Part shown: in pieces, positions 6,767 through 53,378 of the stretch
Position numbering within the stretch: position 1 is the stretch's first letter
Layout of the letters: each line of letters opens with the position of its first letter
Assembly: GCA_963699195.1 (NCBI GenBank)
Contig: OY969420.1
Coordinates: 29,419 to 93,418, forward strand
Source of the DNA: an uncultured bacterium
GTDB lineage: Bacteria > Patescibacteriota > Saccharimonadia > Saccharimonadales > DATKHC01
Reading direction: 5' to 3'
Length of the DNA: 64,000 bases
Position numbers and translations under genes: made by a program
Notes under the pieces: model-generated
The model's input: the letters and a program-made list of their open reading frames with translations, nothing else
Told to the model about the DNA's origin: nothing
The model's database searches: none

Positions 6767-6821
6767 ATTATATTACCATATTTATAGATTTTGTCAATCT
6801 GTTTGTGCTTAGTTTTTCCTC

Positions 6822-6980: not shown

Positions 6981-7136
6981 AGTCAGATAAATATTTATCT
7001 AGACTGGTTGATGTCTATAACCAAATAAGTAAATTTAAGACAAACGGGACTTGGTTTAATCCAAGCACCAACAGCTAGTCAACTGCAACCTTCTCGCAAG
7101 AAGAAATATAAATACTTCAACTGCGAGAAGTCATAA

Positions 7137-10487
<3,351 letters not shown>

Positions 10488-11280
10488 TTTACGTTTTATG
10501 CAATTGACTAGCTATTGGTACTACCAATAGTCTATAATTTAATTTGCCGTTTGTCTTATTTACTCATTAACATAAATTGTTAAGTTACAAAACTCAAGAC
10601 ATTCCCACACTTATAATATAATTCTGTCTTGGTTGAAAACTTGAGTTTACGTTTAAAGTTTCATTTCATTAAATATCTAACCTCTGTGCTTAAACTCAAG
10701 TAGCCTATAGAAGTCTATCAACTTTAACAGAGGTTGTAAAGCATAAAATGATGCTAAAATTACTTACGTAATTTCACCCAGTTAATTATTGCTCGTTAAA
10801 ATTAATGACCTTACTTCAAGACTAGACTTAGTTCCTGCATAATTATCTCGAAGCTATCTAGTTGGTCATAAGTAGATTGAGTCGTCATCTGTATTAACTT
10901 TCTGATGTAGTATCAAATCGGTTACATCAGTGAGACCCATCTAAGTATGATCCCAAAGTGTATATCTATGACTGACGTAATCTATAGCTAAATCGCTAGT
11001 CCCAAACTACTTGTGTCTAGATATTCAGCTATAGCTGACTCTTCATATCATGAGTCATTTCGATAACACTTTCGGATCATAGACGTAATTATCTTCTACC
11101 GGTACATTCCATCCATGAGTGGCCGTGAGTACTATCATTTCAAAAATTGCATCCAGTGGTCATAAGCATGCCTTCCTCGAATGCTGTCACGCCAATCAGT
11201 CAAATTATCAATACTCCTATCCCAGTGTATCCATTCATAGTCTCCATGAATGTTCCTGTATAGACTATTATAATATGTTA

Positions 11281-41146: not shown

Positions 41147-42157
41147 TTAAGCTGCCGATAAGGAACTTAAGCCCGAGTATGCTTCAAGAGCCTTATCTTG
41201 GTCACCCTCATATATCTTCTCAATAATAAGGTTAGTAGCTTCCATGAAGTCCCTTGTTTCGTATGGCACTCTTGATAGTGCCGAATAAAGACCGGGGCTA
41301 AGAGCTTCAATTCGTTTTGCAAATTCTCTTAATCCTTCTATATCTGTCCTTGATTTAAGCATTGCATCAAATATTGCAGGGTCCTTAGCGATAAGTAATT
41401 CTATACCATAAGCCGAGTGTGATGAGACAGAAATTCCTATTTTATTTTTTTTAGATGATTTAACAAAAAAACTTTGTGGAAGCTTATATGGATTACCGTT
41501 CAAACTTAGCTCCTGAGAACCAGCCTTTTGTGGAAAGCCATTTGGCATAGCAAGTTCTTCAGTTACGTAGCGATGTTCCATTAGGCCCGCAAAACCCTCT
41601 TCAAAGAAAGATCCCCTTTCTTCACCATCGTTATCTTTAACAGAAAATCCACTTCTCAGTAACAGAGTGCCGATTTCACCCGATTGAGTCCGAGCAAGCC
41701 CTAGTGGTTTATTTTTTGCACTAGCATGGCCAATTTCGTGAACTAAAAGAGATTCGGTTAACTCTGGGCCGTTTGCAGCTTCCGCGGCTCTATTCCGAAC
41801 CACATAACTTAAATCTAATACTGCAAAGTATGCACCAGTAGTTTTGGCTTCATCACCCCCTGCACCACCAACCAAGTTTTCTAACGCTGGCATATCATTG
41901 CTATCAACGGCTATAAAATCATGCATTGGGAGACCATAGTGATCTAGGAACTTTGCAACCCGTCCGACATTTAGGCCAGTTTCTTCATGTCTAACCTCAT
42001 GTAATATCCTCGCGCGCATATCGCCATAATAACTTTCTACAGTTGCTACATCATTTGGGTCAGCCGGACCCGTATATGGATATTCAGCTTGTCCATCATA
42101 GAGAGATATGTAAGGTTGATTTCCTTTAGCGTACTCTGTTTGTTTACTTTCTGACAT
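41147..42157 (-). CDS. HExxH zinc-metallopeptidase-like protein
   Basis: 336 aa with the motif SLLVHEIGHAS. The promoter TTGACT-17-TAATAT lies 6 nt upstream of the ATG. Confidence 0.55.
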   Translation of the reverse strand: MSESKQTEYAKGNQPYISLYDGQAEYPYTGPADPNDVATVESYYGDMRARILHEVRHEETGLNVGRVAKFLDHYGLPMHDFIAVDSNDMPALENLVGGAGGDEAKTTGAYFAVLDLSYVVRNRAAEAANGPELTESLLVHEIGHASAKNKPLGLARTQSGEIGTLLLRSGFSVKDNDGEERGSFFEEGFAGLMEHRYVTEELAMPNGFPQKAGSQELSLNGNPYKLPQSFFVKSSKKNKIGISVSSHSAYGIELLIAKDPAIFDAMLKSRTDIEGLREFAKRIEALSPGLYSALSRVPYETRDFMEATNLIIEKIYEGDQDKALEAYSGLSSLSAA

Positions 42158-42163
42158 TATATA

Positions 42164-42192
42164 ATATTACCATAAAAGTAGCCCAAAGTCAA
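42164..42192 (-). promoter_or_regulatory. promoter TTGACT-17-TAATAT (leaderless-type)
   Basis: Exact hexamers. Only TATATA separates the -10 from the ATG at 42157. Confidence 0.55.
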
Positions 42193-43126: not shown

Positions 43127-43870
43127 CTAAGTTGTTGGCTGCCCAGCTTCAAACCATTCTCTAATTTGATTTGAGCGAGGCGCATCTGGATTTAAACGTG
43201 TCCAAGTTTCCAGCATTAAGAACATTAAGGCGTCATCATAGTCTCTATTTTCTAAGACATCTCTCCTTAAGTTCATTCGTTGCATTTTTGGTTCATCAGG
43301 TCTATTAGGATCGTAATATTTTTCTAAATCCTCTAATCCATATAACTGACAAGTACTAAAATCGCTATTACCACTTAATATGGCAGTTCTATTTGTTATT
43401 AGTGGCGATTTTTTCATAAAATCTAAACACAGTCTACACGGGAGCAAAGTCGTCGGTGTCTCTCCAAGGATTTCATCGAATTCAGGTTCACCCCATACAG
43501 TTAGTGCTGCTATATCCGTAAATCCCTTGTATTCTGCTCTTGCAATTCCCATTTCCTCGGCATGAATATTCATTTCAACACCGTTGTGGGTTCTCACATT
43601 ATATCCACCGACTATTCCATTCCTAGAATTATCTCTGTCCATACAATATGCTGCTGCACCGACGCGTTTATCACGCCAGGATGCTGCTTGGGCCCCTGCA
43701 ACTTCAGCACTTCGAATTAAAAACACTAGATTATTTATTGCTGACCAGCTTACTTGCCACTCGGTTAATTCAGGTGGATAATAGCCGTCCGTATCAAGGT
43801 TTGGCATTGTCATTTTAAGAAAAAGTTCTGGTACTTTAGTTAGCTCACTCATGAAATAAAAAAATACCAT
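43127..43870 (-). CDS. cytidine/nucleotide deaminase-fold (CDA) protein (likely start MSELTK at 43852)
   Basis: Zinc motifs HAEEM and PCRLC, separated by ~40 aa. Confidence 0.6.
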   Translation of the reverse strand: MVFFYFMSELTKVPELFLKMTMPNLDTDGYYPPELTEWQVSWSAINNLVFLIRSAEVAGAQAASWRDKRVGAAAYCMDRDNSRNGIVGGYNVRTHNGVEMNIHAEEMGIARAEYKGFTDIAALTVWGEPEFDEILGETPTTLLPCRLCLDFMKKSPLITNRTAILSGNSDFSTCQLYGLEDLEKYYDPNRPDEPKMQRMNLRRDVLENRDYDDALMFLMLETWTRLNPDAPRSNQIREWFEAGQPTT

Positions 43871-43889
43871 GTTTATGGTATTTTGTCCA
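43861..43889 (-). promoter_or_regulatory. promoter TGGACA-17-TATTTT
   Basis: The spacer contains the inverted repeat AAATACCAT-AAAC-ATGGTATTT. Confidence 0.4.
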
Positions 43890-43910
43890 ATTACTGGGCA
43901 TTGCTTAAGT

Positions 43911-44396
43911 CTACGTTGTGCTACCAGACTTGGGTGTAAGTGTAATCCCTAAAACCATAGCGCACATATGTTGTGCTGCAGGAGTACTTATTTCTTTTAT
44001 AGCATCGAGTGCTTCTTGACCAAGAACACCAGCAATAATCTTATCCTCAATTTGCTCGCCATCATACCTCATGCCTCGCTCTCCAATGAGTTGGCTTCTT
44101 AAGTTGTGAAGGCACGTTTCAGAGCTAACACGACCACTGTCAATTAGTGATCGTATCACAACTCCCCCTAAGAGAGCGCCCTGAAGAGCCGCATCAGCAC
44201 TTACAATGTCGTGCTCTTTTGCCGCTAAATCATACATTATCTCTGTTGCAGTTAATAAGGGTGTTAGGGTATCTCTTAGCCAAGCCTGCTCTTGTCGCCG
44301 GAAATCATTCGGTGGTAGACTTCTTGCCGTCTCTAGTGCAACCCTAATATCATCACCACCTATATTAATAGGACAAACTGAACCTTGATTAAACAT
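43911..44396 (-). CDS. hypothetical protein
   Basis: Intact 161-aa ORF with its own upstream AT-rich promoter-like region. Confidence 0.45.
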   Translation of the reverse strand: MFNQGSVCPINIGGDDIRVALETARSLPPNDFRRQEQAWLRDTLTPLLTATEIMYDLAAKEHDIVSADAALQGALLGGVVIRSLIDSGRVSSETCLHNLRSQLIGERGMRYDGEQIEDKIIAGVLGQEALDAIKEISTPAAQHMCAMVLGITLTPKSGSTT

Positions 44397-44478
44397 TTCT
44401 AAGTAAGTAAATAAGTTTACTTAGTAAATTGCAAGCATGAGTATAATTGTGAATTGCTACTAGAGAATTTTAGGATAA

Positions 44479-44754
44479 TCAATCTAACTTTGTTGGATCT
44501 GGATCTCCGCCCAGTTTAGTGCAAGTCCAATAATATAGATTAGCTCTAAATGTTTCTACAGGATTTTTCAATAATGCTCCTGCGCCACCGCCAGCTGCTG
44601 TAGCAACAATATCTTCTACAACATTCCCACCAAATTTTGTTGCTGCAGCTAATGCCAATGCGCCACCAATAGCCGCAAATACTACTCTAGGCGTATTGTG
44701 CCCATGCTCACCTTCTGGGTCGAATTGTCTTGAATATTCTCTAAACTCGGTCAT
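44479..44754 (-). CDS. small Gly/Ala-rich membrane protein
   Basis: 91 aa: VVFAAIGGALALAAATKFGG..AAGGGAGALL (glycine-zipper-like). Confidence 0.45.
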   Translation of the reverse strand: MTEFREYSRQFDPEGEHGHNTPRVVFAAIGGALALAAATKFGGNVVEDIVATAAGGGAGALLKNPVETFRANLYYWTCTKLGGDPDPTKLD

Positions 44755-44829
44755 TAACCAAAAATACTATATAAATAGCATTTTGAAAATTGATTATGCT
44801 TAGATTTAAGTAACTCCATTGGTTTAGGG

Positions 44830-45126
44830 CTATTTTTGTCCAGGTTTAGTATTAGGTGACACATTGTCGCCTTCAGAGTGATGTTGACCTACTTGATTAT
44901 TGTGGGCGCTACCTTCAATATGATCTATAGCTTCACTTATTGGGGTTGCAACCCAAGTTAATGGATTTGCTACTTCGACAGTTGGCTGCTTGGGGTGTTC
45001 TCCCTGATTATGAGCGACCTGTAAGCCAACTAAGCTTACAACCGCAAGTGTTAAACCGCCAATTGCCCTTTTTGTTCTAGCTGATAATTTATTTTTGTTT
45101 GGATCTATGGGATCTTTTTCTGACAT
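44830..45126 (-). CDS. small signal-anchored protein
   Basis: 98 aa with a TM segment AIGGLTLAVVSLVGLQV. Confidence 0.45.
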   Translation of the reverse strand: MSEKDPIDPNKNKLSARTKRAIGGLTLAVVSLVGLQVAHNQGEHPKQPTVEVANPLTWVATPISEAIDHIEGSAHNNQVGQHHSEGDNVSPNTKPGQK

Positions 45127-45128
45127 TT

Positions 45129-45566
45129 TTATTGCCCCCTAGCGACTAATATTCCTGGCTTTGTTGGCCTGGAAGTAGTTACTCTTTCGATATGGCTCTT
45201 GCCTTTATCCTTATCATCCCAAACTCTCGTGAATAAACCTAAGCTTTCATCACGCTTACCAAACTCACCTGAGTCTGTAGTATTTAGACCCCATATACTA
45301 GCTGTTTGTTCGGTACCATCCTGGTTATGTATTACCGTATCATTAGTCTCAATAAAAACAGGACCACCAACTTTACGTGCTAACCCTTCTAGTAAGTCTC
45401 TTCCTTCTGTGCCTGGTCTAGACATATCTATTACCATTCCATAACCTTCTTTACCACTCATCGCAATTGGCTTGAATGGGCTGCTACCAGGTATAGATTC
45501 CTGTTCACCAGTTTGAGTGCTGGCTTCTGATGGATTTAGTATTTTTGGTTCGGTTTCTGTAGTCAT
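45129..45566 (-). CDS. hypothetical protein
   Basis: Intact 145-aa ORF. Its stop lies 2 nt before the next gene's ATG, so the two form an operon pair. Confidence 0.5.
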   Translation of the reverse strand: MTTETEPKILNPSEASTQTGEQESIPGSSPFKPIAMSGKEGYGMVIDMSRPGTEGRDLLEGLARKVGGPVFIETNDTVIHNQDGTEQTASIWGLNTTDSGEFGKRDESLGLFTRVWDDKDKGKSHIERVTTSRPTKPGILVARGQ

Positions 45567-45593
45567 TTTTTGTTTTTCCTTTTTAGTTATATA

Positions 45594-45650
45594 TTTAAAG
45601 AGCTTACACTCATATTAGCATAAGCTTTACGATTTGTCAATATAATGGCT
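45594..45650 (-). repeat. 57-nt promoter repeat, copy 1
   Basis: 56/57 identical to 46595-46651. Confidence 0.8.
45612..45640 (-). promoter_or_regulatory. promoter TTGACA-17-TAATAT
   Basis: Part of the 57-nt repeat at 45594-45650. Confidence 0.6.
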
Positions 45651-45680
45651 GTAAGTTACTTTTGTATTTTGGAACTTTTA

Positions 45681-46226
45681 TTAATTTTCAGGTTCATGAA
45701 TTAGATGAGATAAATTACTCAAATCTGAACCAAGTTTCTTTGTAGAGGTTCCTTTTAAAGTCTTGCTCGAGGTTGTTACAAATTGTTTGAGTGACTCTAT
45801 TGTCCTAGTCCAATGATATAGATTAAATACTCTCGTAGGCACCTCAATAGCTGGTCTATCACCATCATTTAACCTTACCTTTTTAACTACTGCTGCTTCC
45901 CCTCCGTCTATGCACCAAGCTGGAACATTTGTGCCTTGATGAGTAGCAAATGCCATCAATACACCCTTTTCATCACCCTCTTTCATTAGACTTTCAAATT
46001 CTTGCCAGGCTGGGTCTAAGTAACCCTGTGCTAAGTTAGTTTCTGCCCCTGTTACTACCATTTGTAATTGTTCTCTGTCACTATCTGATAGATCAAAATC
46101 TCTTCCAAATAGAGCACCCGGCTCTAGGGCTTTTTGTGTGATTTGGCCAAGTCTCACCCTATCCAACTGACCTGCTGTTGAAAGTTCTGGAACATTTAAA
46201 TCGGGTTGTTCGGGAGTATTTGTCAT
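45681..46226 (-). CDS. hypothetical protein
   Basis: Intact 181-aa ORF. Confidence 0.5.
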   Translation of the reverse strand: MTNTPEQPDLNVPELSTAGQLDRVRLGQITQKALEPGALFGRDFDLSDSDREQLQMVVTGAETNLAQGYLDPAWQEFESLMKEGDEKGVLMAFATHQGTNVPAWCIDGGEAAVVKKVRLNDGDRPAIEVPTRVFNLYHWTRTIESLKQFVTTSSKTLKGTSTKKLGSDLSNLSHLIHEPEN

Positions 46227-46244
46227 TTGAATTTTTACTATGTT

Positions 46245-46574
46245 TTAAGACTCAGGTCGGCTCAGCATAGCCCCTAGTGCATCTGCTTCAGCTTGTCGGC
46301 GCAATAGCTCATGTGTCAATATCATTGTTCTATGAAGAGCTCTAATAGCATTATGGTCTGGATTTGGGCCCAGCATAGAGACTGCCAATACACCAACATT
46401 ATTGTATACTTCAGGATTATTAACCTGTAACCTTTCGTCTGCTTGGCCTATTACAGCATTGATCCCCTGTTCTTGAATATCGGCAAATATTGATTCTATG
46501 GTTACGCCAGACACTCTGGGAAGTTGATAGTCAGTAGGATTTTGAAATTCTGGTTTTTTATCTTTATCTGTCAT
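46245..46574 (-). CDS. hypothetical protein
   Basis: Intact 109-aa ORF. Confidence 0.5.
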   Translation of the reverse strand: MTDKDKKPEFQNPTDYQLPRVSGVTIESIFADIQEQGINAVIGQADERLQVNNPEVYNNVGVLAVSMLGPNPDHNAIRALHRTMILTHELLRRQAEADALGAMLSRPES

Positions 46575-46594
46575 TTTTTATCTTTATATTTTAA

Positions 46595-46651
46595 TTTAAA
46601 GAGCTTACACTCATATTAGCATAAGCTTTACTATTTGTCAATATAATGGCT
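46595..46651 (-). repeat. 57-nt promoter repeat, copy 2
   Basis: 56/57 identical to 45594-45650. Confidence 0.8.
46613..46641 (-). promoter_or_regulatory. promoter TTGACA-17-TAATAT
   Basis: Exact hexamers and spacing. Confidence 0.6.
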
Positions 46652-46686
46652 AGCAGAAGCTTTAGAATTGTGGAACAATTTTACTA

Positions 46687-47337
46687 TTAAGAACTCTCCG
46701 TATTCTTTGCTACACACCTTAGAATACTAGACTCTTGGCCATTATAAACTTCATCTATAACATCAAGGTGTTCAATTTGGAATAACCCGCTTAGCAATGT
46801 CCTAGTGTATGGCTTTGAAAACAGATGTCTCACATGTCCGCTATCGGATACGAAAATGTCTTTTTCTACTTCTTTCCCGTTACCAAGTTCTAGATTTTCA
46901 ACTGACTTGCATGCAAAAACTAGCAGTCCACCTACTTTTAAAACTTCTTTGATGTTTTTAACTATTCTTTTAGTGTCGTTATGACTGTAGTAGTGGAGGG
47001 AGAGATTGGCGAACACAACATCAAAACTATTGTCTGGGTAAGGTAGTACATTACGCATGTCGAGTACATCAAACTCTATCCCGCTGTCAGCAAGATATCG
47101 CCGGTCCTGTTCAATAACGACTTCGGAAGCATCCGTTGCAATTACGATGTGTCCGCGTCTGGTAAAAAACTCAGCGTCTCGGCCTACGCCACATCCAAGC
47201 TCAAGTACTTGTGAGTTATCAGCAAAATATTGCTCGGCAAGTTCGGCTAATGGACTAGGTTGGTTCCGCAATTTTTCATGGGCACCAGCTGCATGTTTAG
47301 CATCCCATACTGGTATTTGGTCTGGTATAGAAGACAT
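46687..47337 (-). CDS. class I SAM-dependent methyltransferase
   Basis: Motif I VLELGCGVGRD, post-I IATDASE, FDVVFAN. Confidence 0.8.
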   Translation of the reverse strand: MSSIPDQIPVWDAKHAAGAHEKLRNQPSPLAELAEQYFADNSQVLELGCGVGRDAEFFTRRGHIVIATDASEVVIEQDRRYLADSGIEFDVLDMRNVLPYPDNSFDVVFANLSLHYYSHNDTKRIVKNIKEVLKVGGLLVFACKSVENLELGNGKEVEKDIFVSDSGHVRHLFSKPYTRTLLSGLFQIEHLDVIDEVYNGQESSILRCVAKNTESS

Positions 47338-47351
47338 ATATATACCCTACC

Positions 47352-47375
47352 AAAAAAACACTTCTTAACGAAGTG
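47352..47375 (-). terminator. intrinsic terminator after the MazG-like gene
   Basis: CACTTC-GTTAA-GAAGTG followed by TTTTTTT on the minus strand. Confidence 0.6.
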
Positions 47376-47380
47376 CTTAC

Positions 47381-47417
47381 GCCTGGCAGGCCGTAGCACT
47401 GGAAGTCTGGAGCTATT
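47381..47417 (-). repeat. conserved island-B box, copy 1
   Basis: Minus strand AATAGCTCCAGACTTCCAGTGCTACGGCCTGCCAGGC. Its TAG is the stop codon of the upstream ORF. Confidence 0.7.
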
Positions 47418-48240
47418 TCTGCGCAGAGGGTGCTTCGGGATCAATAAATAAAGCTTTGAGTGCCTGGTCTTGATTTACATATTCATACGTAGCATTTACT
47501 ACCCATGGGCTTAGACGTTCCCTGCCCGAAGACGTACTTTGTCTTTGTTGGGCTTCGTCAACAACATGGGGGATTCGTGCACGATTCGCTAGCTTGTTTA
47601 AGGTATTTTCAATGCAGTTAGTCAAAAGTAGTCCTGTTTTATTTGCAATTATTCCCACATGCACAAGTAAATCGCTCAAGGTCTTGGACAAATCAGGCCT
47701 TTCAACTCCAATTCCTACCCATAAACCATCAGTCTTAGGGTTCAGTACATCAACAACCCTTAAAGTGGCTATAGCAAGTGATTCGAAGAGTTTATCATCT
47801 TCATCTGGCTTTATGGGGTTCCCATCAGGATCAAATATTGGGGTGAGTCCATCTAGAGCAGTTGGGTCAATAGCATAATCTTCCAGTAGGACTGGTGTAC
47901 CTGCGCTATCAGGCGGAGTAGGTTCAATATTTTTAAAACGAGCGATTTCCGATATATACCAAAGAACATCGCCAAGCTCCCCCTCAACTGCAACCGTGTC
48001 AGCAAGGTGATTGTCTGAGTAAAATGTAGCGGACTCTAAGAATTCAAAAGACTCTTCTAGTAACCCTTTCCTTAGCAGCAACTCTGGATCTGGGTAGTCT
48101 TCGTATTGAGCAAATACAGAAGTCATTCCGTATAGTTGACCCAAGCTAAGCTGAGGTGATTTTTCAAAAGGATTTGCCGTATTAGTGACTGTCTGCGAAG
48201 TGTCATTTAACGGATTCTCAGGCGTTGAAGTCATAAACAA
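47413..48240 (-). CDS. MazG-like nucleoside-triphosphate pyrophosphohydrolase (likely start MTSTPE at 48234)
   Basis: EESFEFLES .. EGELGDVLWYISEIA (ExxE..ExxD pattern). Confidence 0.6.
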   Translation of the reverse strand: MFMTSTPENPLNDTSQTVTNTANPFEKSPQLSLGQLYGMTSVFAQYEDYPDPELLLRKGLLEESFEFLESATFYSDNHLADTVAVEGELGDVLWYISEIARFKNIEPTPPDSAGTPVLLEDYAIDPTALDGLTPIFDPDGNPIKPDEDDKLFESLAIATLRVVDVLNPKTDGLWVGIGVERPDLSKTLSDLLVHVGIIANKTGLLLTNCIENTLNKLANRARIPHVVDEAQQRQSTSSGRERLSPWVVNATYEYVNQDQALKALFIDPEAPSAQK

Positions 48241-48280
48241 AAAAATACCATGGAAATACTATTTTGAAAAATGCTTACAC

Positions 48281-48317
48281 TTGACGGGCCGTAGCAATAG
48301 GAGTCTGGAACTACTAT
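48281..48317 (-). repeat. conserved island-B box, copy 2
   Basis: Minus strand ATAGTAGTTCCAGACTCCTATTGCTACGGCCCGTCAA. Confidence 0.7.
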
Positions 48318-49045
48318 TGTGGTGGCAAGTCAGAGAAATATTGGCCGGTTTTACGGATAAGCTCCGCTACTGGATTTTGAGCGAAAGCGAAAGGAGGAGA
48401 CAGCAGATCATTGAACCCTTCAAAGCCCACTTCGTTACTTACATTTGAGCCGAGAGGGGGAGTAATAATTTTGGTCTGATCGGCAATAATAAATGTTCCT
48501 AAGGGCATAGTCACCTGACCCCTTTTATTTAGCCCTACGCATGTTCGTTGCTCGATTGTGCCGGTTTTTAAATGGCCGATGGCTGGCTGCAGATGGTGCC
48601 AACTTAACCAGCCCAATTGTTCATTGTCCTGACTCGAGGTTCTAAAAGAACCCAAGCTACCGTGACCTACGAATGCCAATGAAGATACATCAGGGTCAGC
48701 AATAGTCTTGAGCACCTCTTGAGTCGAGGGGTCCTCTAGCAATAGGACTCTTTCGCAACCACGTAATGCTGTCTCGCGTTCGGCCACCTGAAGAGCATGG
48801 ACTTGGGCCGTTTCGTAATCTTTACCAGATTTTTGTTCACCCGCGTTAACCAAGATTGCAAACGAACCTCTCGCATCATCTACACCCAATCGTGAGGCAG
48901 CAAGCATTTCGGCGTGATTGGTGTGCTGTTTGAGCAAAACGGGTATACGGGTGTTAATTTTTCCTGATCTGCCCATAAAAATCCTTTCAGCGATAATCAA
49001 AATCAATTTAAAACAAAAAATACCATAAATATAGTATTTGGTCAA
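48314..49045 (-). CDS. hypothetical protein; possible minimal caspase/CHAT-like fold (likely start MGRSGK at 48976)
   Basis: LAFVGHGS followed ~40 aa later by IEQRTCVG (a His..Cys dyad pattern). This is speculative. Confidence 0.4.
   Translation of the reverse strand: MTKYYIYGIFCFKLILIIAERIFMGRSGKINTRIPVLLKQHTNHAEMLAASRLGVDDARGSFAILVNAGEQKSGKDYETAQVHALQVAERETALRGCERVLLLEDPSTQEVLKTIADPDVSSLAFVGHGSLGSFRTSSQDNEQLGWLSWHHLQPAIGHLKTGTIEQRTCVGLNKRGQVTMPLGTFIIADQTKIITPPLGSNVSNEVGFEGFNDLLSPPFAFAQNPVAELIRKTGQYFSDLPPQ
49017..49045 (-). promoter_or_regulatory. promoter TTGACC-17-TATTTT
   Basis: Lies directly 3' of box copy 3. Confidence 0.45.
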
Positions 49046-49056
49046 GCATATGTGTA

Positions 49057-49090
49057 ATGGCGGTTGTGGCTTTCCAGATTTGGAGCTATT
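49057..49090 (-). repeat. conserved island-B box, copy 3
   Basis: Minus strand AATAGCTCCAAATCTGGAAAGCCACAACCGCCAT. Confidence 0.6.
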
Positions 49091-49093
49091 TTA

Positions 49094-49348
49094 CTACTTT
49101 GGAGCCTCAAATATAGCCAAAGCAGCTAATTGACGTGTTTTAGCAGCCTCAACCTGCTCAGGAAAATCAGGACTAGATGTTCTCATATCTACATAATGTT
49201 CAGTGGCCATGCGTATTTCACCCGCCAATGATTCTTGATCAATTATTTGAAGACCACCTAGCTCAAATAATTGTTCGCCAGATAATCTAACGGTAACTGG
49301 TCGACCTGATTGCTTTACAAGTTTGTCTTGCGAGTCCGGAGTTGTCAT
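49094..49348 (-). CDS. ribbon-helix-helix (CopG/Arc-like) DNA-binding protein
   Basis: RPVTVRLSGEQLFEL..SLAGEIRMATEHYV fits the RHH beta-strand plus two-helix pattern. Confidence 0.5.
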   Translation of the reverse strand: MTTPDSQDKLVKQSGRPVTVRLSGEQLFELGGLQIIDQESLAGEIRMATEHYVDMRTSSPDFPEQVEAAKTRQLAALAIFEAPK

Positions 49349-49355
49349 ATTTTAA

Positions 49356-49384
49356 ACATTAACATCTTATTGGCATTTTGTCAA
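49356..49384 (-). promoter_or_regulatory. promoter TTGACA-17-TAATGT (leaderless-type)
   Basis: Only 7 nt lie between the -10 and the ATG at 49348. Confidence 0.6.
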
Positions 49385-49385
49385 T

Positions 49386-49420
49386 GTAGCGGGCTGTAGC
49401 TTTAGAAGTCTGGAACTATT
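49386..49420 (-). repeat. conserved island-B box, copy 4
   Basis: Minus strand AATAGTTCCAGACTTCTAAAGCTACAGCCCGCTAC. It abuts the -35. Confidence 0.7.
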
Positions 49421-49464
49421 TTGCTATAAATAACCTGCTAATCACTTAGTTTGCTAATTGTTAG

Positions 49465-49947
49465 TTATGGTTGCTCATATCCATTAGAAGCGTTAATGCC
49501 ATGACTTTCTGGCGGCATACTATCTCGTATTATGCCAGGTCCGCTAACGTTCTTACCAAATCCTGAAGAGCTACCAGTTCGAGGTTCTATTCCACCTTCA
49601 CCCGTTCCAGGAGAAGTTACATTGTTAGCAGTGGTACCAACAAGGTTTGCGGTACCCTCTGTCCATCCAGCGTTGCTACGAAGGTTTTGGCTCCTAGTCA
49701 CATCCGCAGTCTTACTCTGACCGATTCCAAAAATTTTCTTCATATGCTCTTTACCAATCAATGCATTCCCCGTCACACCGCTTGTAACTAATCCTGCTAC
49801 TGTTTCGGGCGTAAACCCAACTTCACCAATATGTTTATAAAAATATAGATTAGCTGCTACACAGGCAAACACACCAATTTGTCGAGCTACTCTTGCTTTC
49901 CGATTTGCACTTTCCGGAACTTCAATACTGTATAATTCATTATTCAT
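49465..49947 (-). CDS. hypothetical protein with one TM segment and a Gly/Ser/Thr/Asn-rich tail
   Basis: Intact 160-aa ORF. Confidence 0.5.
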   Translation of the reverse strand: MNNELYSIEVPESANRKARVARQIGVFACVAANLYFYKHIGEVGFTPETVAGLVTSGVTGNALIGKEHMKKIFGIGQSKTADVTRSQNLRSNAGWTEGTANLVGTTANNVTSPGTGEGGIEPRTGSSSGFGKNVSGPGIIRDSMPPESHGINASNGYEQP

Positions 49948-49971
49948 TTTTTGTTTTTACTTTACATAAAA

Positions 49972-50000
49972 ATACTACCATATATTTGGTAGTATGTCAA
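49972..50000 (-). promoter_or_regulatory. promoter TTGACA-17-TAGTAT
   Basis: The spacer holds the palindrome TACTACCA-AATATA-TGGTAGTA. Confidence 0.6.
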
Positions 50001-50004
50001 TTAC

Positions 50005-50040
50005 ATGGCGGGCCGTAGTGCAAGATATCTGGAACTACTT
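50005..50040 (-). repeat. conserved island-B box, copy 5
   Basis: Minus strand AAGTAGTTCCAGATATCTTGCACTACGGCCCGCCAT. Confidence 0.7.
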
Positions 50041-50142
50041 TAGCACCCAAGCGTCTGATATCTACTACCCTAAAATAGAAAACCGCCCAAGTTATGAGCG
50101 ATTATCTACACTTAAATTATCTTAAATATCTAAACTTTTAAC

Positions 50143-50601
50143 CTATTGCTTTGGTTGCTCAATGTTAATATGTACACCTTGAGCTTCAGCTTCTTGAATG
50201 GCTTGCTCATGATATTCACCTTGATGAGCAGTATAGTGGGCAGCACTAGTTTCTAAAGTGCTGTCATATGCACCCTGTGCTTGACTCTCGTTAATCTTTG
50301 CAACGTCTGCGGCATTTTGAGCCTTAGATTTTATGACTGCGGGAGCGTATTGTTCAGGAACATCAGTACCACCACCATACGGGTGACTCAATATGTCGTC
50401 TCTCCTACTAAAACGATAGTTAGGGTCATGTAGGTTACGAGTAGCTTCGTCCAACTTTTGTTCTGCTGCTTGGCTTTGATTTTGTCGCCATTCTAGCGTT
50501 TCACTATCTTGTTTGTGTTGTTTGTATAGGCTTTCTGCTTCAGAAGATAATTCGTGATTCATAATGTTACTTATACTAGCATAAGCTGTATGTTTTGTCA
50601 A
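50143..50601 (-). CDS. hypothetical hydrophilic protein (likely start MNHELS at 50562)
   Basis: The first 13 codons of the track ORF are the promoter TTGACA-17-TAGTAT itself. Confidence 0.5.
   Translation of the reverse strand: MTKHTAYASISNIMNHELSSEAESLYKQHKQDSETLEWRQNQSQAAEQKLDEATRNLHDPNYRFSRRDDILSHPYGGGTDVPEQYAPAVIKSKAQNAADVAKINESQAQGAYDSTLETSAAHYTAHQGEYHEQAIQEAEAQGVHINIEQPKQ
50573..50601 (-). promoter_or_regulatory. promoter TTGACA-17-TAGTAT (leaderless-type)
   Basis: 10 nt lie between the -10 and the ATG at 50562. It shares TAGCATAAGCT with the 57-nt repeat promoters. Confidence 0.6.
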
Positions 50602-50642
50602 CTTGACTTTTCATAGGTTATATTTTACATCACAATAATTAT

Positions 50643-51077
50643 ATGAGTTCAAAACTAAAACAATCAGGAAGACCAACCGTCCTTACTAAGCCAACTGTCT
50701 TGAAATTGGAACAAGCCCTGAAAGACGGTTTTAGCATTGAAATGGCTTGTTATGTATCTGATATTAGCCGTAGCACCTACTACGCCAATTTACAGACAGA
50801 TACGGACTTTATGAACAAAATGGAACTGGCTCAGTCATGGGCTACAGAACGTGCAAAACAAGTTGTTATCCAAGCTATTGATAAAGGCAACCTAAAAGCG
50901 GCTCAGTGGTGGCTAGAACGCAAGCTAAGAGCAGAATTCAGTCTTAACGCACCAACATTTGCTCAAGGTAACGGTGATAGCGACTTCGTAGACCAGTATT
51001 TTGACGGTAATCAGAATAAGTTCTTAGACTTTATGTCGCATACCATTGAAGCTATGCGAGAGCCTAGTAAATCGTAG
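50643..51077 (+). CDS. HTH DNA-binding protein (terminase-small-subunit/homeodomain-like)
   Basis: 144 aa: GRPTVLTKPTVLKLEQALKDGFSIEMACYVSDISRSTYY..AAQWWLERK. Confidence 0.55.
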   Translation: MSSKLKQSGRPTVLTKPTVLKLEQALKDGFSIEMACYVSDISRSTYYANLQTDTDFMNKMELAQSWATERAKQVVIQAIDKGNLKAAQWWLERKLRAEFSLNAPTFAQGNGDSDFVDQYFDGNQNKFLDFMSHTIEAMREPSKS

Positions 51078-51285: not shown

Positions 51286-51552
51286 GTGCAGCAATCAACC
51301 GACACACCAGTTACAAAACTATTACCAGCCCATGCCACGCCTGAGCCTGGTTCAGTTCAACGTGGTCAATCTAAGTCCTTTGCAGACTTGCAACCAGGTC
51401 TTGAAAACATACATAAAATTAACGACCTGAACCCTGAGCAACAGAACCTATTTAACTTTCTCAAGTTAGTGGTTGATATTAAGTATCGCCATAAATATGG
51501 TGAGAAAATTGAGCAAAATAGTGGTAAAGGATATAGTACCTATGATGATTGA
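51286..51552 (+). CDS. small hypothetical protein upstream of the recombinase (possible directionality factor)
   Basis: 88-aa track ORF with a GTG start. No motif recognised. Confidence 0.3.
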   Translation: MQQSTDTPVTKLLPAHATPEPGSVQRGQSKSFADLQPGLENIHKINDLNPEQQNLFNFLKLVVDIKYRHKYGEKIEQNSGKGYSTYDD

Positions 51553-53101
51553 TATCCCAATACCAAAATCAAAATGTTACGTTTACTTACGCCGTTCTCA
51601 AGACCGAGATGACAGACAAGCACTTAGTTTGGATAAACAAGACCAGCAGGTTAAGCGAATTATTTCTGACAATAAGTTCTCTCCAATATACTTACCTGCC
51701 GAAGAACGTTCTGCTAAATATCCTGGTCGCCCTATTTTTGGTGATATGGTAAAAGGCATTGAAAATGGTGAAGCCCGCTATATAGCTGTTTGGCATATTT
51801 CTAGACTTAGCAGAAACCCAATAGATGGCGGTCAGATAATTTACCTACTGGATACAGGTAAGCTACTAGCAATTTATACACCTAATCGTGTTTACAGAAA
51901 CACACCAGATGATAAGGCATTTTTAGCCATTGAGCTTGCCTTTGCTAAGAAAAATAATGACGATTTAAGTGAGCAGGTTAAAGAAAGCTACGTTGTTAAG
52001 CGTCAACGTGGTGAGTATCCTGGCCCCGCTTTTTTGGGGTACATCAACATTATCGTTAGACCAGGTGTCCGCAATATCGCACCATGTCCAGAAGAAGGCC
52101 CCAAACTTTATGATGTATTTGTTTACGCTGCTACAGGTATGTACACGCTAGACGAAGTATGGAAGTACGCTCAAGACAGAGGGCTTAAATCACCAACTAA
52201 CCCTAACAACCTAATTGCTAAAACCACCTTAGAAAATGGGTTAAAAAGACGAGATTACACTGGTGTTTTCAAAAGAGGCGGTGCTGAATGGATACAAGGT
52301 AGTTACGAACCCCTAATATCAGTTGATTTATATGACAGAGTTCAAGCAGCTATGGGTTGGGCAAAACAACACAAAAACTACTCAACTAAAGGTGCTTTTT
52401 ATGCCTATAAAGGTGTCCCCCGTTGTGGAACTTGTAGCATGAATATTACTGCCTATACCAAGCCTAAAGTGCTTGCGACTACAGGTGAATTAGCAAGTTA
52501 CACTTTTTACGTCTGTACCAAAAAGAGTAAAACCATTAAGTGTAAAGAACCACAGCTTGCTGAACATGAGTTTACTGGCGTTATTAAAGACGAGATGTCC
52601 AACTATGAGATAACCGAAGCAGACGGCGAAGTGTGCAAGTTACTGGTTCATAACGTCTACGATGATTACATGAAAAGCCAGGACATATACAATGATGTCT
52701 GGAAGCATGACTTAAGACAGGCGGAGAAGGCTCTAGATGTTCTAGACGATAAATTAGAGCATGGTGTCATTACTGATGACCGCTACCAGCTTAGAGCAGC
52801 TAAACATCAAAGTATGGTGGTTAGAACTACCAAACTTCTTAACGGTTCTTCACAAGACGCCGAACGCTGGTTAGAACTATGTAATGAAACCTTTTCAGGT
52901 ATAACCAACATTGGCGAAGTATTTGAACTAGCAAATGATGAAGAACGCCGTCAGTTAATGCTGTATTTAGGTACGAACTGGACTTTAAGCAACAAAAAAG
53001 TGGCTCTAACAGCTAGAGAACCACTTAATATGCTACATAAAAATACCCGTAAATCGGATTGGCGGGCTCGACCGGATTTGAACCGGCGATCTCCTCCGTG
53101 A
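51473..53101 (+). CDS. large serine recombinase (integrase); likely start MMIDIP at 51542
   Basis: YVYLRRSQDRDDRQ..SLDKQ, VWHISRLSRN, Cys motifs CGTC..C..C. The last ~42 nt are antisense to the tRNA-Asp 3' half. Confidence 0.9.
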   Translation: MILSIAINMVRKLSKIVVKDIVPMMIDIPIPKSKCYVYLRRSQDRDDRQALSLDKQDQQVKRIISDNKFSPIYLPAEERSAKYPGRPIFGDMVKGIENGEARYIAVWHISRLSRNPIDGGQIIYLLDTGKLLAIYTPNRVYRNTPDDKAFLAIELAFAKKNNDDLSEQVKESYVVKRQRGEYPGPAFLGYINIIVRPGVRNIAPCPEEGPKLYDVFVYAATGMYTLDEVWKYAQDRGLKSPTNPNNLIAKTTLENGLKRRDYTGVFKRGGAEWIQGSYEPLISVDLYDRVQAAMGWAKQHKNYSTKGAFYAYKGVPRCGTCSMNITAYTKPKVLATTGELASYTFYVCTKKSKTIKCKEPQLAEHEFTGVIKDEMSNYEITEADGEVCKLLVHNVYDDYMKSQDIYNDVWKHDLRQAEKALDVLDDKLEHGVITDDRYQLRAAKHQSMVVRTTKLLNGSSQDAERWLELCNETFSGITNIGEVFELANDEERRQLMLYLGTNWTLSNKKVALTAREPLNMLHKNTRKSDWRARPDLNRRSPP

Positions 53102-53135
53102 CAGGGAGGCGTGATAACCACTTCACTACGAGCCC
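53060..53135 (-). tRNA. tRNA-Asp(GUC)
   Basis: Acceptor GGGCTCG/CGAGCCC, anticodon loop CTGTCAC, T-loop TTCAAAT, encoded CCA. Confidence 0.9.
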
Positions 53136-53217: not shown

Positions 53218-53293
53218 GCCGACATAGCTCAGTTGGTAGAGCGGCGCTTTCGTAAAGCGTAGGTCAGCGGTTCGATTCCGCTTGTCGGCTCCA
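53218..53293 (+). tRNA. tRNA-Thr(CGU)
   Basis: Acceptor GCCGACA/TGTCGGC, anticodon loop TTCGTAA, encoded CCA. Confidence 0.9.
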
Positions 53294-53303
53294 TCAATTA
53301 ATT

Positions 53304-53378
53304 GCGGGTATCGTATAGTGGTTAATATGCAGCCTTCCCAAGGCTGAGAGCTGGGTTCGATTCCCAGTATCCGCACCA
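53304..53378 (+). tRNA. tRNA-Gly(CCC)
   Basis: Acceptor GCGGGTA/TATCCGC, anticodon loop TTCCCAA, encoded CCA. Confidence 0.9.

Follow-up and report, generated by a model that had tools for sequence, protein, structure and literature searches.

The array of small genes behind tRNA-Asp in the window (the whole 64-kb stretch of DNA analysed) probably arose by tandem accretion of small elements, integrated at the 3' end of this tRNA gene through large serine recombinases (LSRs) of one family. This interpretation of the sequence rests on a 36-nt box that recurs family-wide, its position behind tRNA-Asp, its identity to the tRNA end and its coding signature in the LSR frame. It rests further on four junction types, a free form, a wider family of recombinase tails, swaps of neighbours and decay of the boxes.

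Units and promoters of the array

The array contains 12 ORFs, not eleven as an earlier note had counted, running head to tail on the minus strand (43911-50562), and most have a strong promoter to themselves. They carry few domains, as that note remarked. Pfam matches were found in only two, a SAM methyltransferase and a MazG-like protein (Pfam MazG 4.9e-7), and the ORF of unit 3, previously called an RHH protein, has no Pfam match.

50081..50601, minus strand: cargo gene of the LSR element (promoter 50601-50573, ATG 50562, ORF 50143..50562)
49465..50000, minus strand: unit 2 (composite terminator/promoter 50000-49972; ORF 49465..49947)
49094..49384, minus strand: unit 3 (promoter 49384-49356; ORF 49094..49348, 84 aa, no family match)
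48314..49045, minus strand: unit 4 (promoter 49045-49017; ORF 48314..48976, 220 aa, no family match)
47413..48269, minus strand: unit 5 (hairpin and extended -10 at 48269-48241; MazG-like ORF 47413..48234)
46687..47378, minus strand: unit 6 (intrinsic terminator 47378-47356; SAM methyltransferase 46687..47337)
45681..46641, minus strand: unit 7 (promoter/hairpin 46641-46602; ORFs 46245..46574 and 45681..46226)
44830..45640, minus strand: unit 8 (promoter/hairpin 45640-45601; ORFs 45129..45566 and 44830..45126)
43127..44789, minus strand: distal array without recognisable boxes (hairpin/promoter 44789-44760 with ORF 44479..44754; ORF 43911..44396)
43127..43852, minus strand: cytidine-deaminase-like ORF in the distal part, with a perfect palindrome/promoter at 43889-43861

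Most junctions contain composite terminator/promoters, in which a hairpin over the -10 is followed by a T-run. The hairpin of unit 2 has 9 bp (fold -10.6 kcal/mol, z -3.6), the fold of unit 6 is similar (-10.3 kcal/mol, z -3.8), and the LSR-element cargo gene has a terminator-like hairpin at 50103-50081. The promoters reported previously are all present: TTGACA-17-TAGTAT at 50601-50573 and 50000-49972, TTGACA-17-TAATAT at 46641-46613 and 45640-45612, and TTGACA-17-TAATGT at 49384-49356, where the ATG of unit 3 follows 7 nt past the -10. Island-like promoters were also seen at 6797, 5739 and 22268, the first likewise with an ATG a few bases past its -10.

Under stricter criteria (TTGAC, spacer, extended -10 TGnTAnnnT), 12 sites remained in the 64-kb window, 7 of them in the 6.8-kb island (binomial p ~7e-5). 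This promoter architecture is not island-specific; its style is typical of this organism and not foreign to it. The distal part (43127..44789) may be the oldest, and its outer limit is uncertain; we assume that the box-free 43.1-45.6 kb belongs to the array from its promoter style and orientation.

Copies of the box in the window

The 36-nt box has sharp edges and occurs in the island as four strong, one weak and two decayed copies. A pattern search allowing at most 3 mismatches gave 4 matches against 0.00 expected. The E values below come from an HMM trained only on 45 copies from outside the window.

50003..50042, minus strand: box 1 (E 5e-11), predicted attR of the resident LSR element (P arm and core)
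49387..49424, minus strand: box 2 (E 3e-11)
49057..49094, minus strand: box 3, partly decayed (E 0.002 over 49094-49066)
48280..48316, minus strand: box 4 (E 3e-8)
47382..47419, minus strand: box 5 (E 2e-10)
46647..46683, minus strand: decayed box (E 2.3, not significant)
45646..45680, minus strand: strongly decayed box, not detected by the HMM

The five copies described previously were thus recovered, one of them (box 3) weakly. The two described as degenerate (46642-46682 and 45641-45680) are plausibly decayed boxes: 46653-46694 is 81% identical over 42 nt to the box 2 region (49393-49434), and the more distal copy lies in a 122-nt duplicate (45554-45675, 78% identical to 46555-46676). Box quality in the window, as judged with the HMM, drops with distance from the tRNA, and the 57 kb outside the island contain no box. 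Boxes that abut the -35 and stop codons in or against the box were described correctly; in unit 5 the TAG of the box itself terminates the MazG-like ORF.

Relation of the box to the recombinase C-terminus and the tRNA end

53060..53135, minus strand: tRNA-Asp(GTC), the putative integration target (ARAGORN, Rfam, junction comparison)
51542..53101, plus strand: LSR (Pfam Resolvase 1.3e-15, Recombinase 1.8e-5)
51286..51552, plus strand: small ORF, 88 aa, overlapping the LSR start (motif found upstream of the LSR in relatives)
50643..51077, plus strand: HTH protein of the LSR element (tblastn; weak HTH-type matches only)

The LSR ORF is open from 51473, with M24 at 51542 as the likely start, and eight syntenic relatives adjoin tRNA-Asp or tRNA-Met. 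By frame analysis, the final 13 codons of the LSR gene (W-R-A-R-P-D-L-N-R-R-S-P-P) overlap tRNA-Asp in antisense. The small ORF has no Pfam match, and the motif LF.FL.L.VDIKYR.KYG..G.GY precedes the LSR in 7/7 family members examined; it is a candidate accessory or directionality factor. By tblastn, L002/L017 keep the HTH protein alongside the LSR (84%), and L007 does so in part.

The final 8-9 nt of the box are identical to the tRNA-Asp 3' end, and the last 8 nt of the tRNA, GCCCGCCA (53060-53067), form the identity block common to every box. Read in reverse complement, the box amounts to exactly 12 codons that continue the LSR reading frame through the common W-R-A: W-R-A-V-A-x-E-V-W-N-Y-F (in box 1, W-R-A-V-V-Q-D-I-W-N-Y-F). 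The tRNA CCA, read in antisense, gives the conserved Trp codon, TGG. Variability is concentrated at third codon positions of this frame. There pN/pS is 0.43, compared with 0.62 in one box-strand frame and 1.03-1.26 in the other four, a signal drawn from 12 codons only and from copies whose search pattern kept certain positions fixed. Among 134 near-full-length relatives in the wider LSR family, 59 have tails encoded antisense to a tRNA (..DSN..), and a homologous tail ends at least 17 others, W-x-x-h-h-[DE]-[DE]-V-R-T-[FY]-F (h, hydrophobic residue). These comparisons indicate that the box is the element-side arm and core of attP, left behind as an attR scar.

Junction types and a free form

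All four junction types were found: attL and attR in the window, L002 and L007; attB-type in L011 and L020; and attP-type in L029, L031 and L034. In L029, positions 67-199 correspond to window 52935-53067 and 192-311 to window 50006-50125, fusing box 1 to the LSR 3' end. Three database proteins (P0014-P0016) likewise have the LSR C-terminus fused to a box-coded tail. A full-length LSR of 42% identity (P0022) ends in D-W-R-A-L-V-D-A-V-W-N-Y-Y and is encoded on the 4822-bp contig L038. The ends of this contig lie 2 nt apart within one reverse-transcriptase gene, and the protein joined across them gives a single RVT_1 match spanning the junction. L038 is probably a circular free element, as judged from its ends.

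Boxes and neighbours in other Saccharibacteria

With the search extended beyond the window, as the earlier note proposed, we found at least 57 distinct box copies in 38 sources (Saccharibacteria contigs), in one orientation per locus. They lie downstream of tRNA-Asp, on the same strand, in 9/9 loci with tRNA-Asp and enough flank. Co-occurrence with a serine recombinase and RHH/HTH genes is not constant: boxes stand behind tRNA-Asp without an LSR in L011, L016, L020 and L023. The kinds of sequence found 3' of the tRNA CCA are those found 3' of the box CCA. A terminator family directly follows the L011 and L020 tRNAs and also 4/7 of the L020 boxes; in L016 and L023 a promoter abuts the tRNA CCA or lies at most ~12 nt past it, with an ATG 7-8 nt past the -10.

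Between boxes, different contigs carry unrelated ORFs, in line with the cassette turnover that the earlier note asked about. One and the same LSR element stands beside six different right-hand neighbours, and its box is 93-100% identical in L002, L007 and L028 and near-identical in L029 and L034. Box 1 itself matches L002 (34 nt, 100%) and L007 (43 nt, 93%) with different flanking genes. L018 and L024 have an upstream unit and box in common up to CCA+2 and are unrelated beyond. We therefore assign the box to the 3' end of the unit that precedes it, and the repeated cassettes recognised previously are better written promoter-ORF-box than box-promoter-ORF.

Serial insertion and its alternatives

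We propose that the attP of this family straddles the last 12-13 codons of its own LSR gene, which in the free circle would end ...S-D-W-R-A-V-A-x-E-V-W-N-Y-F. Recombination inside the common block would fuse the LSR gene to the tRNA, so that the integrated LSR acquires its tRNA-encoded tail. The 36 nt of natural tail would be stranded as the box at the element's other end, directly behind the stop codon of the convergent cargo gene. Since the sequence right of the core is arbitrary, the tRNA arm and core may suffice as a target, in which case new elements would re-insert at the tRNA and displace older ones. Canonical LSRs, however, are not known to target attL and require a specific pair of half-sites, and an arbitrary right arm would be unusual for an LSR. 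Alternatively, an incoming circle could have produced tandem copies through homologous recombination with a resident LSR gene. Older elements would then lose the recombination module (LSR, small ORF and HTH gene) by deletion, a step that we infer with few intermediates, since an LSR remnant is kept at only 3 of ~57 junctions. Deletion would be limited by the essential tRNA 3' end on one side and the cargo promoter on the other, which would explain why many units begin with CCA, 2-5 nt and a -35 hexamer. The residue would be a repeated terminator/promoter-ORF-box unit, in which several ORFs start 4-10 nt past the -10; since a cargo gene must be expressed wherever it is inserted, each would bring a promoter and terminator of its own. 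The boxes would be scars that decay with age but could still serve as attR partners if the resident element is excised along with units downstream of it.

A possible but clearly less probable alternative is that the recombinase-less promoter-ORF-box units are themselves mobile, as in SCC or integrons; the LSR, acting in trans, would excise them (box x box or tRNA x box) and return them to the 3' end of tRNA-Asp. It overlaps with serial insertion and differs solely in how single-gene units arise and move. Unit edges are precise (CCA left, box right), the -35 lies 2-5 nt past the CCA at 11/57 box junctions, recombinase-less units directly adjoin the tRNA in L016 and L023, one toxin unit (YafQ/ParE) occupies different array positions in L007 and L011, and Ccr LSRs moving tandem cassettes provide a precedent (PMC11470126). 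However, we found no circle junction of a recombinase-less unit, and the sequences right of the core are too diverse for a recognised half-site. Deletion bounded by the essential tRNA can also explain the tight abutment, and precise excision of an LSR element would likewise leave recombinase-less units beside the tRNA. It is unlikely that ORFs are shuffled by homologous recombination alone (as might follow natural transformation), with box and terminator/promoter as a portable homology patch and no site-specific enzyme. Such shuffling fits the composite terminator/promoters, as in T4-type phages (PMC2839356, PMC4122927), and the L018/L024 breakpoint at the motif, but leaves unexplained the 12-codon LSR frame, the tRNA 3' identity, the attP/attB/attL/attR quartet and the strict place behind tRNA-Asp; moreover, the box is only 36 nt and neighbouring promoters are poorly conserved between copies.

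Readings in which the box itself acts fare worse. That it is a 3' UTR element, such as a tRNA-like terminus or a signal for the processing or stability of each mRNA, is very improbable: it stands right behind stop codons, would be co-transcribed with the ORF and ends in CCA, often followed by a terminator, but an Rfam scan gave no match, the only possible stem has 4-5 bp without covariation (variation produces A-C mismatches) and the T-arm/acceptor register misfits. The least probable reading is the operator of the earlier note, or a "stoperator", bound by the supposed RHH or the HTH protein to co-regulate the array or block its transcription. The site is asymmetric, oriented with transcription and placed at gene ends beside promoters, and the TAG-N16-CTA dyad is indeed present. 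Against this, 53 copies contain no compensatory changes and no symmetric conservation, conservation tracks codon periodicity, copies degrade, as neutral scars would, the farther they lie from the tRNA, and arrays with 3-7 boxes (L014, L018, L019 and L020) encode no homologue of either protein. The other proposal of that note, a junction for cassette exchange, agrees with an attR-type recombination junction between unrelated ORFs.

Relation to known systems

The view that no described system has this layout was too strong, as SCC, tandem tRNA islands, integrons and T4 PeSL come close. By analogy, SCC composite islands and tandem tRNA islands appear closest. SCC/SCCmec elements (CcrAB/CcrC) also use LSRs to integrate into a conserved housekeeping gene, at its 3' end, and form tandem elements in one orientation between repeated att sequences. 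These arrays carry accessory or defence cargo and include units that lack recombinase genes. Ccr LSRs mobilise att-consensus-delimited tandem cassettes singly, in pairs or together (PMC11470126). Here, the target is a tRNA gene rather than rlmH, units span 0.3-3 kb, often with one gene, compared with ~17-68 kb for SCCmec and tandem cassettes, and the single LSR is distant from Ccr (NCBIfam CcrB 41.8 bits, cut-off 900). Unlike in SCC, attP would lie inside the LSR gene, so that the protein C-terminus changes on integration, and the host is a CPR bacterium.

In tRNA islands, a regenerated tRNA and a displaced repeat mark the island ends (PMC4383910). Those of the Islander/TIGER type resemble the array in tRNA 3' end integration, serial accretion and decay, but mostly use tyrosine integrases; the islands here are miniature, and the displaced repeat has only 8-9 nt in common with the tRNA, the remainder being the recombinase 3' coding end. 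Integrons likewise hold mostly single-gene cassettes in one orientation beside a recombinase, with a conserved recombination site overlapping or abutting the stop codon and extremely diverse, ORFan-rich cargo. They differ in having an IntI tyrosine recombinase, attC-type folded palindromes and a Pc promoter, whereas these genes have their own promoters and the insertion point is a tRNA end. T4-type PeSL (promoter-early stem-loop) modules, composite terminator/promoters between small variable ORFan genes (PMC2839356, PMC4122927), have recombination breakpoints at the motif as here, but belong to phage genomes and homologous recombination without a link to tRNA or a site-specific recombinase; in our array the conserved box is separate from promoter and hairpin. 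If the boxes are integration scars, the array would be a stack of captured, self-expressed cargo and not a new regulatory system.

The island at tRNA-Asp

The window is a chromosomal stretch of Saccharibacteria type that contains an rRNA operon, RNase P RNA and eight tRNAs, and its nearest relatives are Saccharibacteria/Saccharimonadales MAGs. The island spans ~43.1-53.1 kb of the window and consists of three parts, with the features listed here.

Features of the island
43127..43852, with the minus-strand array: deaminase-like ORF
50562 down to 43911, minus strand: twelve array ORFs
50643..51077, plus strand: HTH gene
51286..51552, plus strand: 88-aa ORF
51542..53101, plus strand: large serine recombinase (LSR), its last 42 nt antisense to the 3' part of tRNA-Asp
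53060..53135, minus strand: tRNA-Asp

Within the array, a 122-nt promoter/leader segment is duplicated at 78% identity (45554-45675 and 46555-46676) and heads two different units; its promoter part recurs at 50569-50601 (85%), before the cargo gene of the LSR element. Just past a convergent EamA-like gene lies a 336-aa ORFan (41147..42157) with a strong promoter of the array style (42163-42192; ATG 6 nt after the -10), which may be an old array unit or an unrelated neighbour. Elsewhere in the window, the 23S rRNA match (7132-10491) covers 3360 nt against a model of 2925 positions, and the gene probably carries ~430 nt of inserted sequence; insertions are often seen in CPR rRNA genes. The tRNA cluster is locally rearranged between lineages. 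Divergent tRNA-Thr and tRNA-Gly genes sit at the 5' side of tRNA-Asp in the window (53218-53378) and in the related locus L020, and lie on the far side of the island, in tRNA-Asp orientation, in L002 (977-1142), L003 (2368-2520) and L007 (7017-7171).

A conserved box follows the array genes

The earlier note had described a conserved box between the array ORFs, and a pattern search bore this out (4 matches, 0.00 expected). The box is 36 nt long with sharp edges, RAAA-TAGTTCCAGA-YNTC-NNNN-GCTACGGCCCGCCA. An HMM trained solely on copies from outside the window gave four matches with E-values of 3e-8 to 3e-11 and one at 0.002. Two copies that had been called degenerate do not reach significance with the HMM, but they are recognisable as decayed duplicates. 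Scanning metagenome contigs with the box pattern identified 20 loci; together with loci fetched via the LSR, these bring the total to 57 distinct copies, including arrays of seven (L020), four (L009, L014, L018 and L019) and three (L011 and L016). Within each locus all boxes share the strand of the ORFs. In 32 of the 57 copies, the first three bases of the box or the 12 nt before it contain the end of an ORF of 40 codons or more, and in 13 of those 32 the stop codon is the box's own TAG. Boxes were absent from the 57 kb of the window outside the island, and from the fetched loci outside box arrays. Among the first 28 loci fetched, the window cargo ORFs have no homologues other than a weak methyltransferase match; therefore, the box is conserved and the surrounding genes are not. 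The one homologue found of the MazG unit, at 43% identity, has a box-free context (L037), and exact-protein look-ups for strain-level cassette turnover returned only the same strain (L036).

The box is not a REP/BIME-type repeat, being neither palindromic nor dispersed in the window or the fetched loci. Nor is it a copy of the tRNA-Asp 3' half: the match is confined to the last 8-9 nt, and the register of the T-arm is wrong; the window contains no second copy of the tRNA-Asp 3' end.

The box encodes a recombinase tail

The LSR contains an N-terminal resolvase domain (Pfam PF00239, 1.3e-15) and a 'Recombinase' domain (PF07508, 1.8e-5) in 519-542 aa, and thus has the catalytic and 'Recombinase' domains and the length (about 450-700 aa) expected of a large serine recombinase. 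On its opposite strand, the box reads as exactly twelve codons, W-R-A-V-A-x-[EQGD]-[VI]-W-N-Y-F. The LSR ends in ...K-S-D-W-R-A, followed by R-P-D-L-N-R-R-S-P-P, translated from the antisense strand of the tRNA, and a stop. W-R-A, common to box and LSR, represents a common core, the TGG of which is the antisense of CCA, and the final 8-9 nt of the box are those of the tRNA-Asp 3' end. Variation across the box copies is concentrated at third codon positions, with a pN/pS of 0.43 in the LSR frame versus 1.03-1.26 in four other frames, the remaining frame, on the box strand, being at 0.62.

A profile search combining the LSR C-terminus with box-coded tails revealed three fused database proteins (P0014-P0016), on whose contigs (L029, L031 and L034) a box arm is followed by the core and then by an LSR 3' remnant. 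L029 is an exact join of the ends of the window element: its positions 67-199 correspond to 52935-53067 and 192-311 to 50006-50125, and the switch between the two falls inside TGGCGKGC. All four junction types were found in silico; they are related by a single reciprocal exchange within the short common core GCCCGCCA.

Junction types
attL: tRNA arm, core, LSR end
attR: box arm, core, any sequence
attP-type: box arm, core, LSR end
attB-type: tRNA arm, core, native terminator

The attP junction of the element is predicted to read ...GTAGTTCCAGATATCTTGCACTACGGCCCGCCAATCCGATTTACGGG..., and the empty site after loss of the LSR element ...GGTTCAAATCCGGTCGAGCCCGCCATGTAATTGACATAC...

On contigs of sufficient length, the array begins directly downstream of tRNA-Asp, on the same strand as the tRNA. 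At least one box lies downstream in all nine loci that have tRNA-Asp and enough flank, and such arrays also occur without a recombinase (L011, L016, L020 and L023). The kinds of sequence that follow the tRNA's CCA match those that follow the CCA of the box. A terminator family, cgaaa..cacc....ggtgg.cttttttcgtgcc, is found after the tRNA in L011 and L020 and after four of the seven L020 boxes, while a promoter starts 2 nt (L023) or 12 nt (L016) past the tRNA's CCA, with the ATG 7-8 nt after the -10. This LSR family most probably puts cargo genes at tRNA-Asp, with the box as the attR scar.

Some arrays have tRNA-Asp-like 3' fragments (..CCGGTCGGGC(C/T)CGCCA, AATCCAGCCCCGCCA) directly before a promoter, at ~7035-7050 in L009, ~4470-4485 in L011 and ~3222-3240 in L031; in L009 and L011 these are preceded by a ~130-nt copy of the native region downstream of tRNA-Asp. 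Integration events of another kind may have left these as scars. The small ORF that precedes and overlaps the LSR start (51286-51552) has the motif LF.FL.L.VDIKYR.KYG..G.GY and no Pfam match. Small ORFs with this motif were present at or before the LSR start in all family members examined, including L001, L002, L003, L005, L006 and L008, and we regard this protein as a candidate accessory or directionality factor.

Growth of the array

One LSR element occurs beside six different right-hand neighbours, and the right arm of the target is therefore arbitrary; the element's box shows 93-100% identity across L002, L007 and L028, with near-identical copies in L029 and L034. The box of a newer element is joined to an older LSR remnant in three independent lineages, and these joins represent insertions made in tandem at the tRNA-proximal end. 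L018 and L024 have one unit and its box in common; the shared sequence stops at CCA+2, and what comes after is unrelated. A YafQ/ParE toxin unit takes differing positions in L007 and L011, and box quality in the window drops with distance from the tRNA.

We infer that the recombination module would be lost by deletion following integration. Deletions would be barred from the essential tRNA and disfavoured in the promoter of useful cargo, so that the junk between them would shrink to a few bases, which would explain why the -35 hexamer starts 2-5 nt after CCA in 11 of the 57 units. The next integration would place the compact [promoter-ORF-box] unit one position further from the tRNA. The close fit between cargo stop and box would arise because the cargo and LSR genes are convergent and abut in the free element.

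Promoters and terminators

The consensus promoters reported for the array in the earlier note are present at the coordinates given there. A strict scan (TTGAC, spacer, TGnTAnnnT) found 12 sites in the 64 kb, 7 of them inside the island. Housekeeping promoters at 6797 (ATG 3 nt past the -10), 5739 and 22268 are built alike, and this promoter style is therefore typical of the organism. Most units carry their own -35 and extended -10, and a promoter for most genes is the special trait of the array. Several of these promoters have a palindrome over the -10 and then a T-run. Of nine junction hairpins folded, six have z <= -2.8 and T-runs after them, and four junction hairpins were also called terminator-like; the palindrome-bearing promoters are composite terminator/promoters. 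Island-specific operators were rejected as an explanation of the palindromes, which look like terminators; the promoter style also occurs at housekeeping promoters.

Alternative explanations and known systems

The box had been proposed as an operator for a common regulator, either the 84-aa 'RHH' or the 144-aa HTH protein. Homologues of neither are found in other box arrays, and we rejected this reading on the lack of a cognate protein there, the lack of symmetric conservation and the decay with distance. An RNA element is likewise unsupported: Rfam has no match in the island, the box dyad is only 3-5 bp without covariation, and mutual information within the box gave no signal of structure or covariation. 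The array resembles PeSL terminator/promoters (PMC2839356, PMC4122927) in that its small variable ORFs are separated by a sigma70 promoter fused with a stem-loop terminator, and gene shuffling by homologous recombination through box and promoter may contribute, but it leaves the frame, the core and the tRNA location unexplained. A check for PeSL-type exchange gave one breakpoint at the box core. Searches of IMG/VR with the box pattern, in its original and a looser form, and with the LSR returned no box match and no close LSR relative, and a phage origin was rejected on these results.

The main alternative for how units move is mobilisation of recombinase-less units in trans, for which Ccr LSRs of SCC provide a precedent (PMC11470126). 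Both systems have tandem units with att repeats in the same orientation downstream of the 3' end of a conserved gene; no circle junctions of recombinase-less units were found in the sequences compared. The LSR lies outside CcrA/CcrB/CcrC, with an NCBIfam CcrB score of 41.8 bits versus a cut-off of 900, in the catalytic domain only. Integrons are similar in cargo organisation. However, the adjacent recombinase here is of the serine type rather than an IntI-type tyrosine recombinase next to attI, the box, with its dyad of only 3-5 bp and no covariation, is unlike attC sites (imperfect palindromes with conserved R/L boxes and a single-stranded fold), and most units have their own promoter whereas integron cassettes are mostly promoterless and share Pc. 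We place the array outside the Ccr, IntI and PeSL families; in function, it is a small-scale counterpart of SCC composite islands and tandem tRNA islands (PMC4383910). No description of the array, the box or LSRs in Saccharibacteria islands was found in the literature searched.

A linked pair of readings goes further, and we hold it only tentatively, as rather improbable: that the LSR mobilises recombinase-less [promoter-ORF-box] units singly in trans, and that, across the large clade of tRNA-targeting LSRs, the C-terminal tail swap on integration, in which the conserved EVWNYF/EVRTFF tail is replaced by a tRNA-encoded one, is a built-in switch of activity or directionality. Mobilisation of this kind, if true, would make the island an equivalent, in ultra-small CPR bacteria, of an integron run by a serine recombinase: the tRNA-Asp 3' end would correspond to attI and the 36-nt box to attC.

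A probable free element and the wider recombinase family

An exhaustive protein search found 6573 LSR relatives. Among the 134 near-full-length best matches, 59 end in tRNA-antisense tails (..W-R-x-x-D-S-N-P..) and at least 17 in W-x-x-h-h-[DE]-[DE]-V-R-T-[FY]-F (h, hydrophobic residue), which corresponds to the peptide that the box encodes. One full-length LSR, P0022 (42% identity), has a tail that reads D-W-R-A-L-V-D-A-V-W-N-Y-Y. Its 4822-bp contig (L038) begins and ends within one reverse-transcriptase gene, at points 2 nt apart, and the end-joined protein gives a single RVT_1 match spanning the junction; the simplest interpretation of L038 is a free element, circular or in tandem, whose attP is intact. 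It follows that the tail encoded by the box truly belongs to the LSR protein and is conserved in it, and coding for it accounts for the twelve-codon length and codon-like conservation of the box.

A large clade within P0019-P0167, 27-35% identical to the window LSR, has ends that are antisense translations of the tRNA T-arm and acceptor stem (..RDSNP.., ..WDSNPRP..). Throughout the family, the recombinases appear to target tRNA 3' ends and to have a gene that crosses the att site. The usual reported targets are protein-coding genes for serine integrases and tRNAs for tyrosine integrases, which makes this clade noteworthy. In this broad LSR clade attP lies within the recombinase gene, which gives the free and the integrated element different forms of the protein, and we found no description of such a clade in the literature searched. 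One locus labelled 'Verrucomicrobiia bacterium' (L006) has a Saccharibacteria-type LSR and tRNA-Asp + tRNA-Arg synteny and aligns with L011 over several blocks at about 70-79% nucleotide identity; it is therefore probably mis-binned.

Cargo and significance

Cargo in the window and related arrays includes toxins, a reverse transcriptase, OLD-like ATPases, MazG, methyltransferases, ankyrin proteins and cell-wall hydrolases; PADLOC run on the window cargo gave only a generic methyltransferase match. The related arrays (L031 453-2315, the contig ends of L038, L007 7262-7840, L011 3070-3648 and L009 1952-3646) encode an AAA_15/AAA_21 ATPase with an RloB protein (OLD-like), a GIY-YIG protein, a reverse transcriptase, a YafQ/ParE toxin pair, an ankyrin protein and a secreted protein with discoidin and CHAP domains, which suggests defence and host-interaction functions. 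The LSR and its ~45-bp site are a candidate tool for site-specific integration in the hard-to-engineer Saccharibacteria and other CPR. These bacteria have tiny genomes and are thought to have few mobile elements. The island represents a defined hotspot downstream of tRNA-Asp at which self-expressed genes of foreign origin build up.
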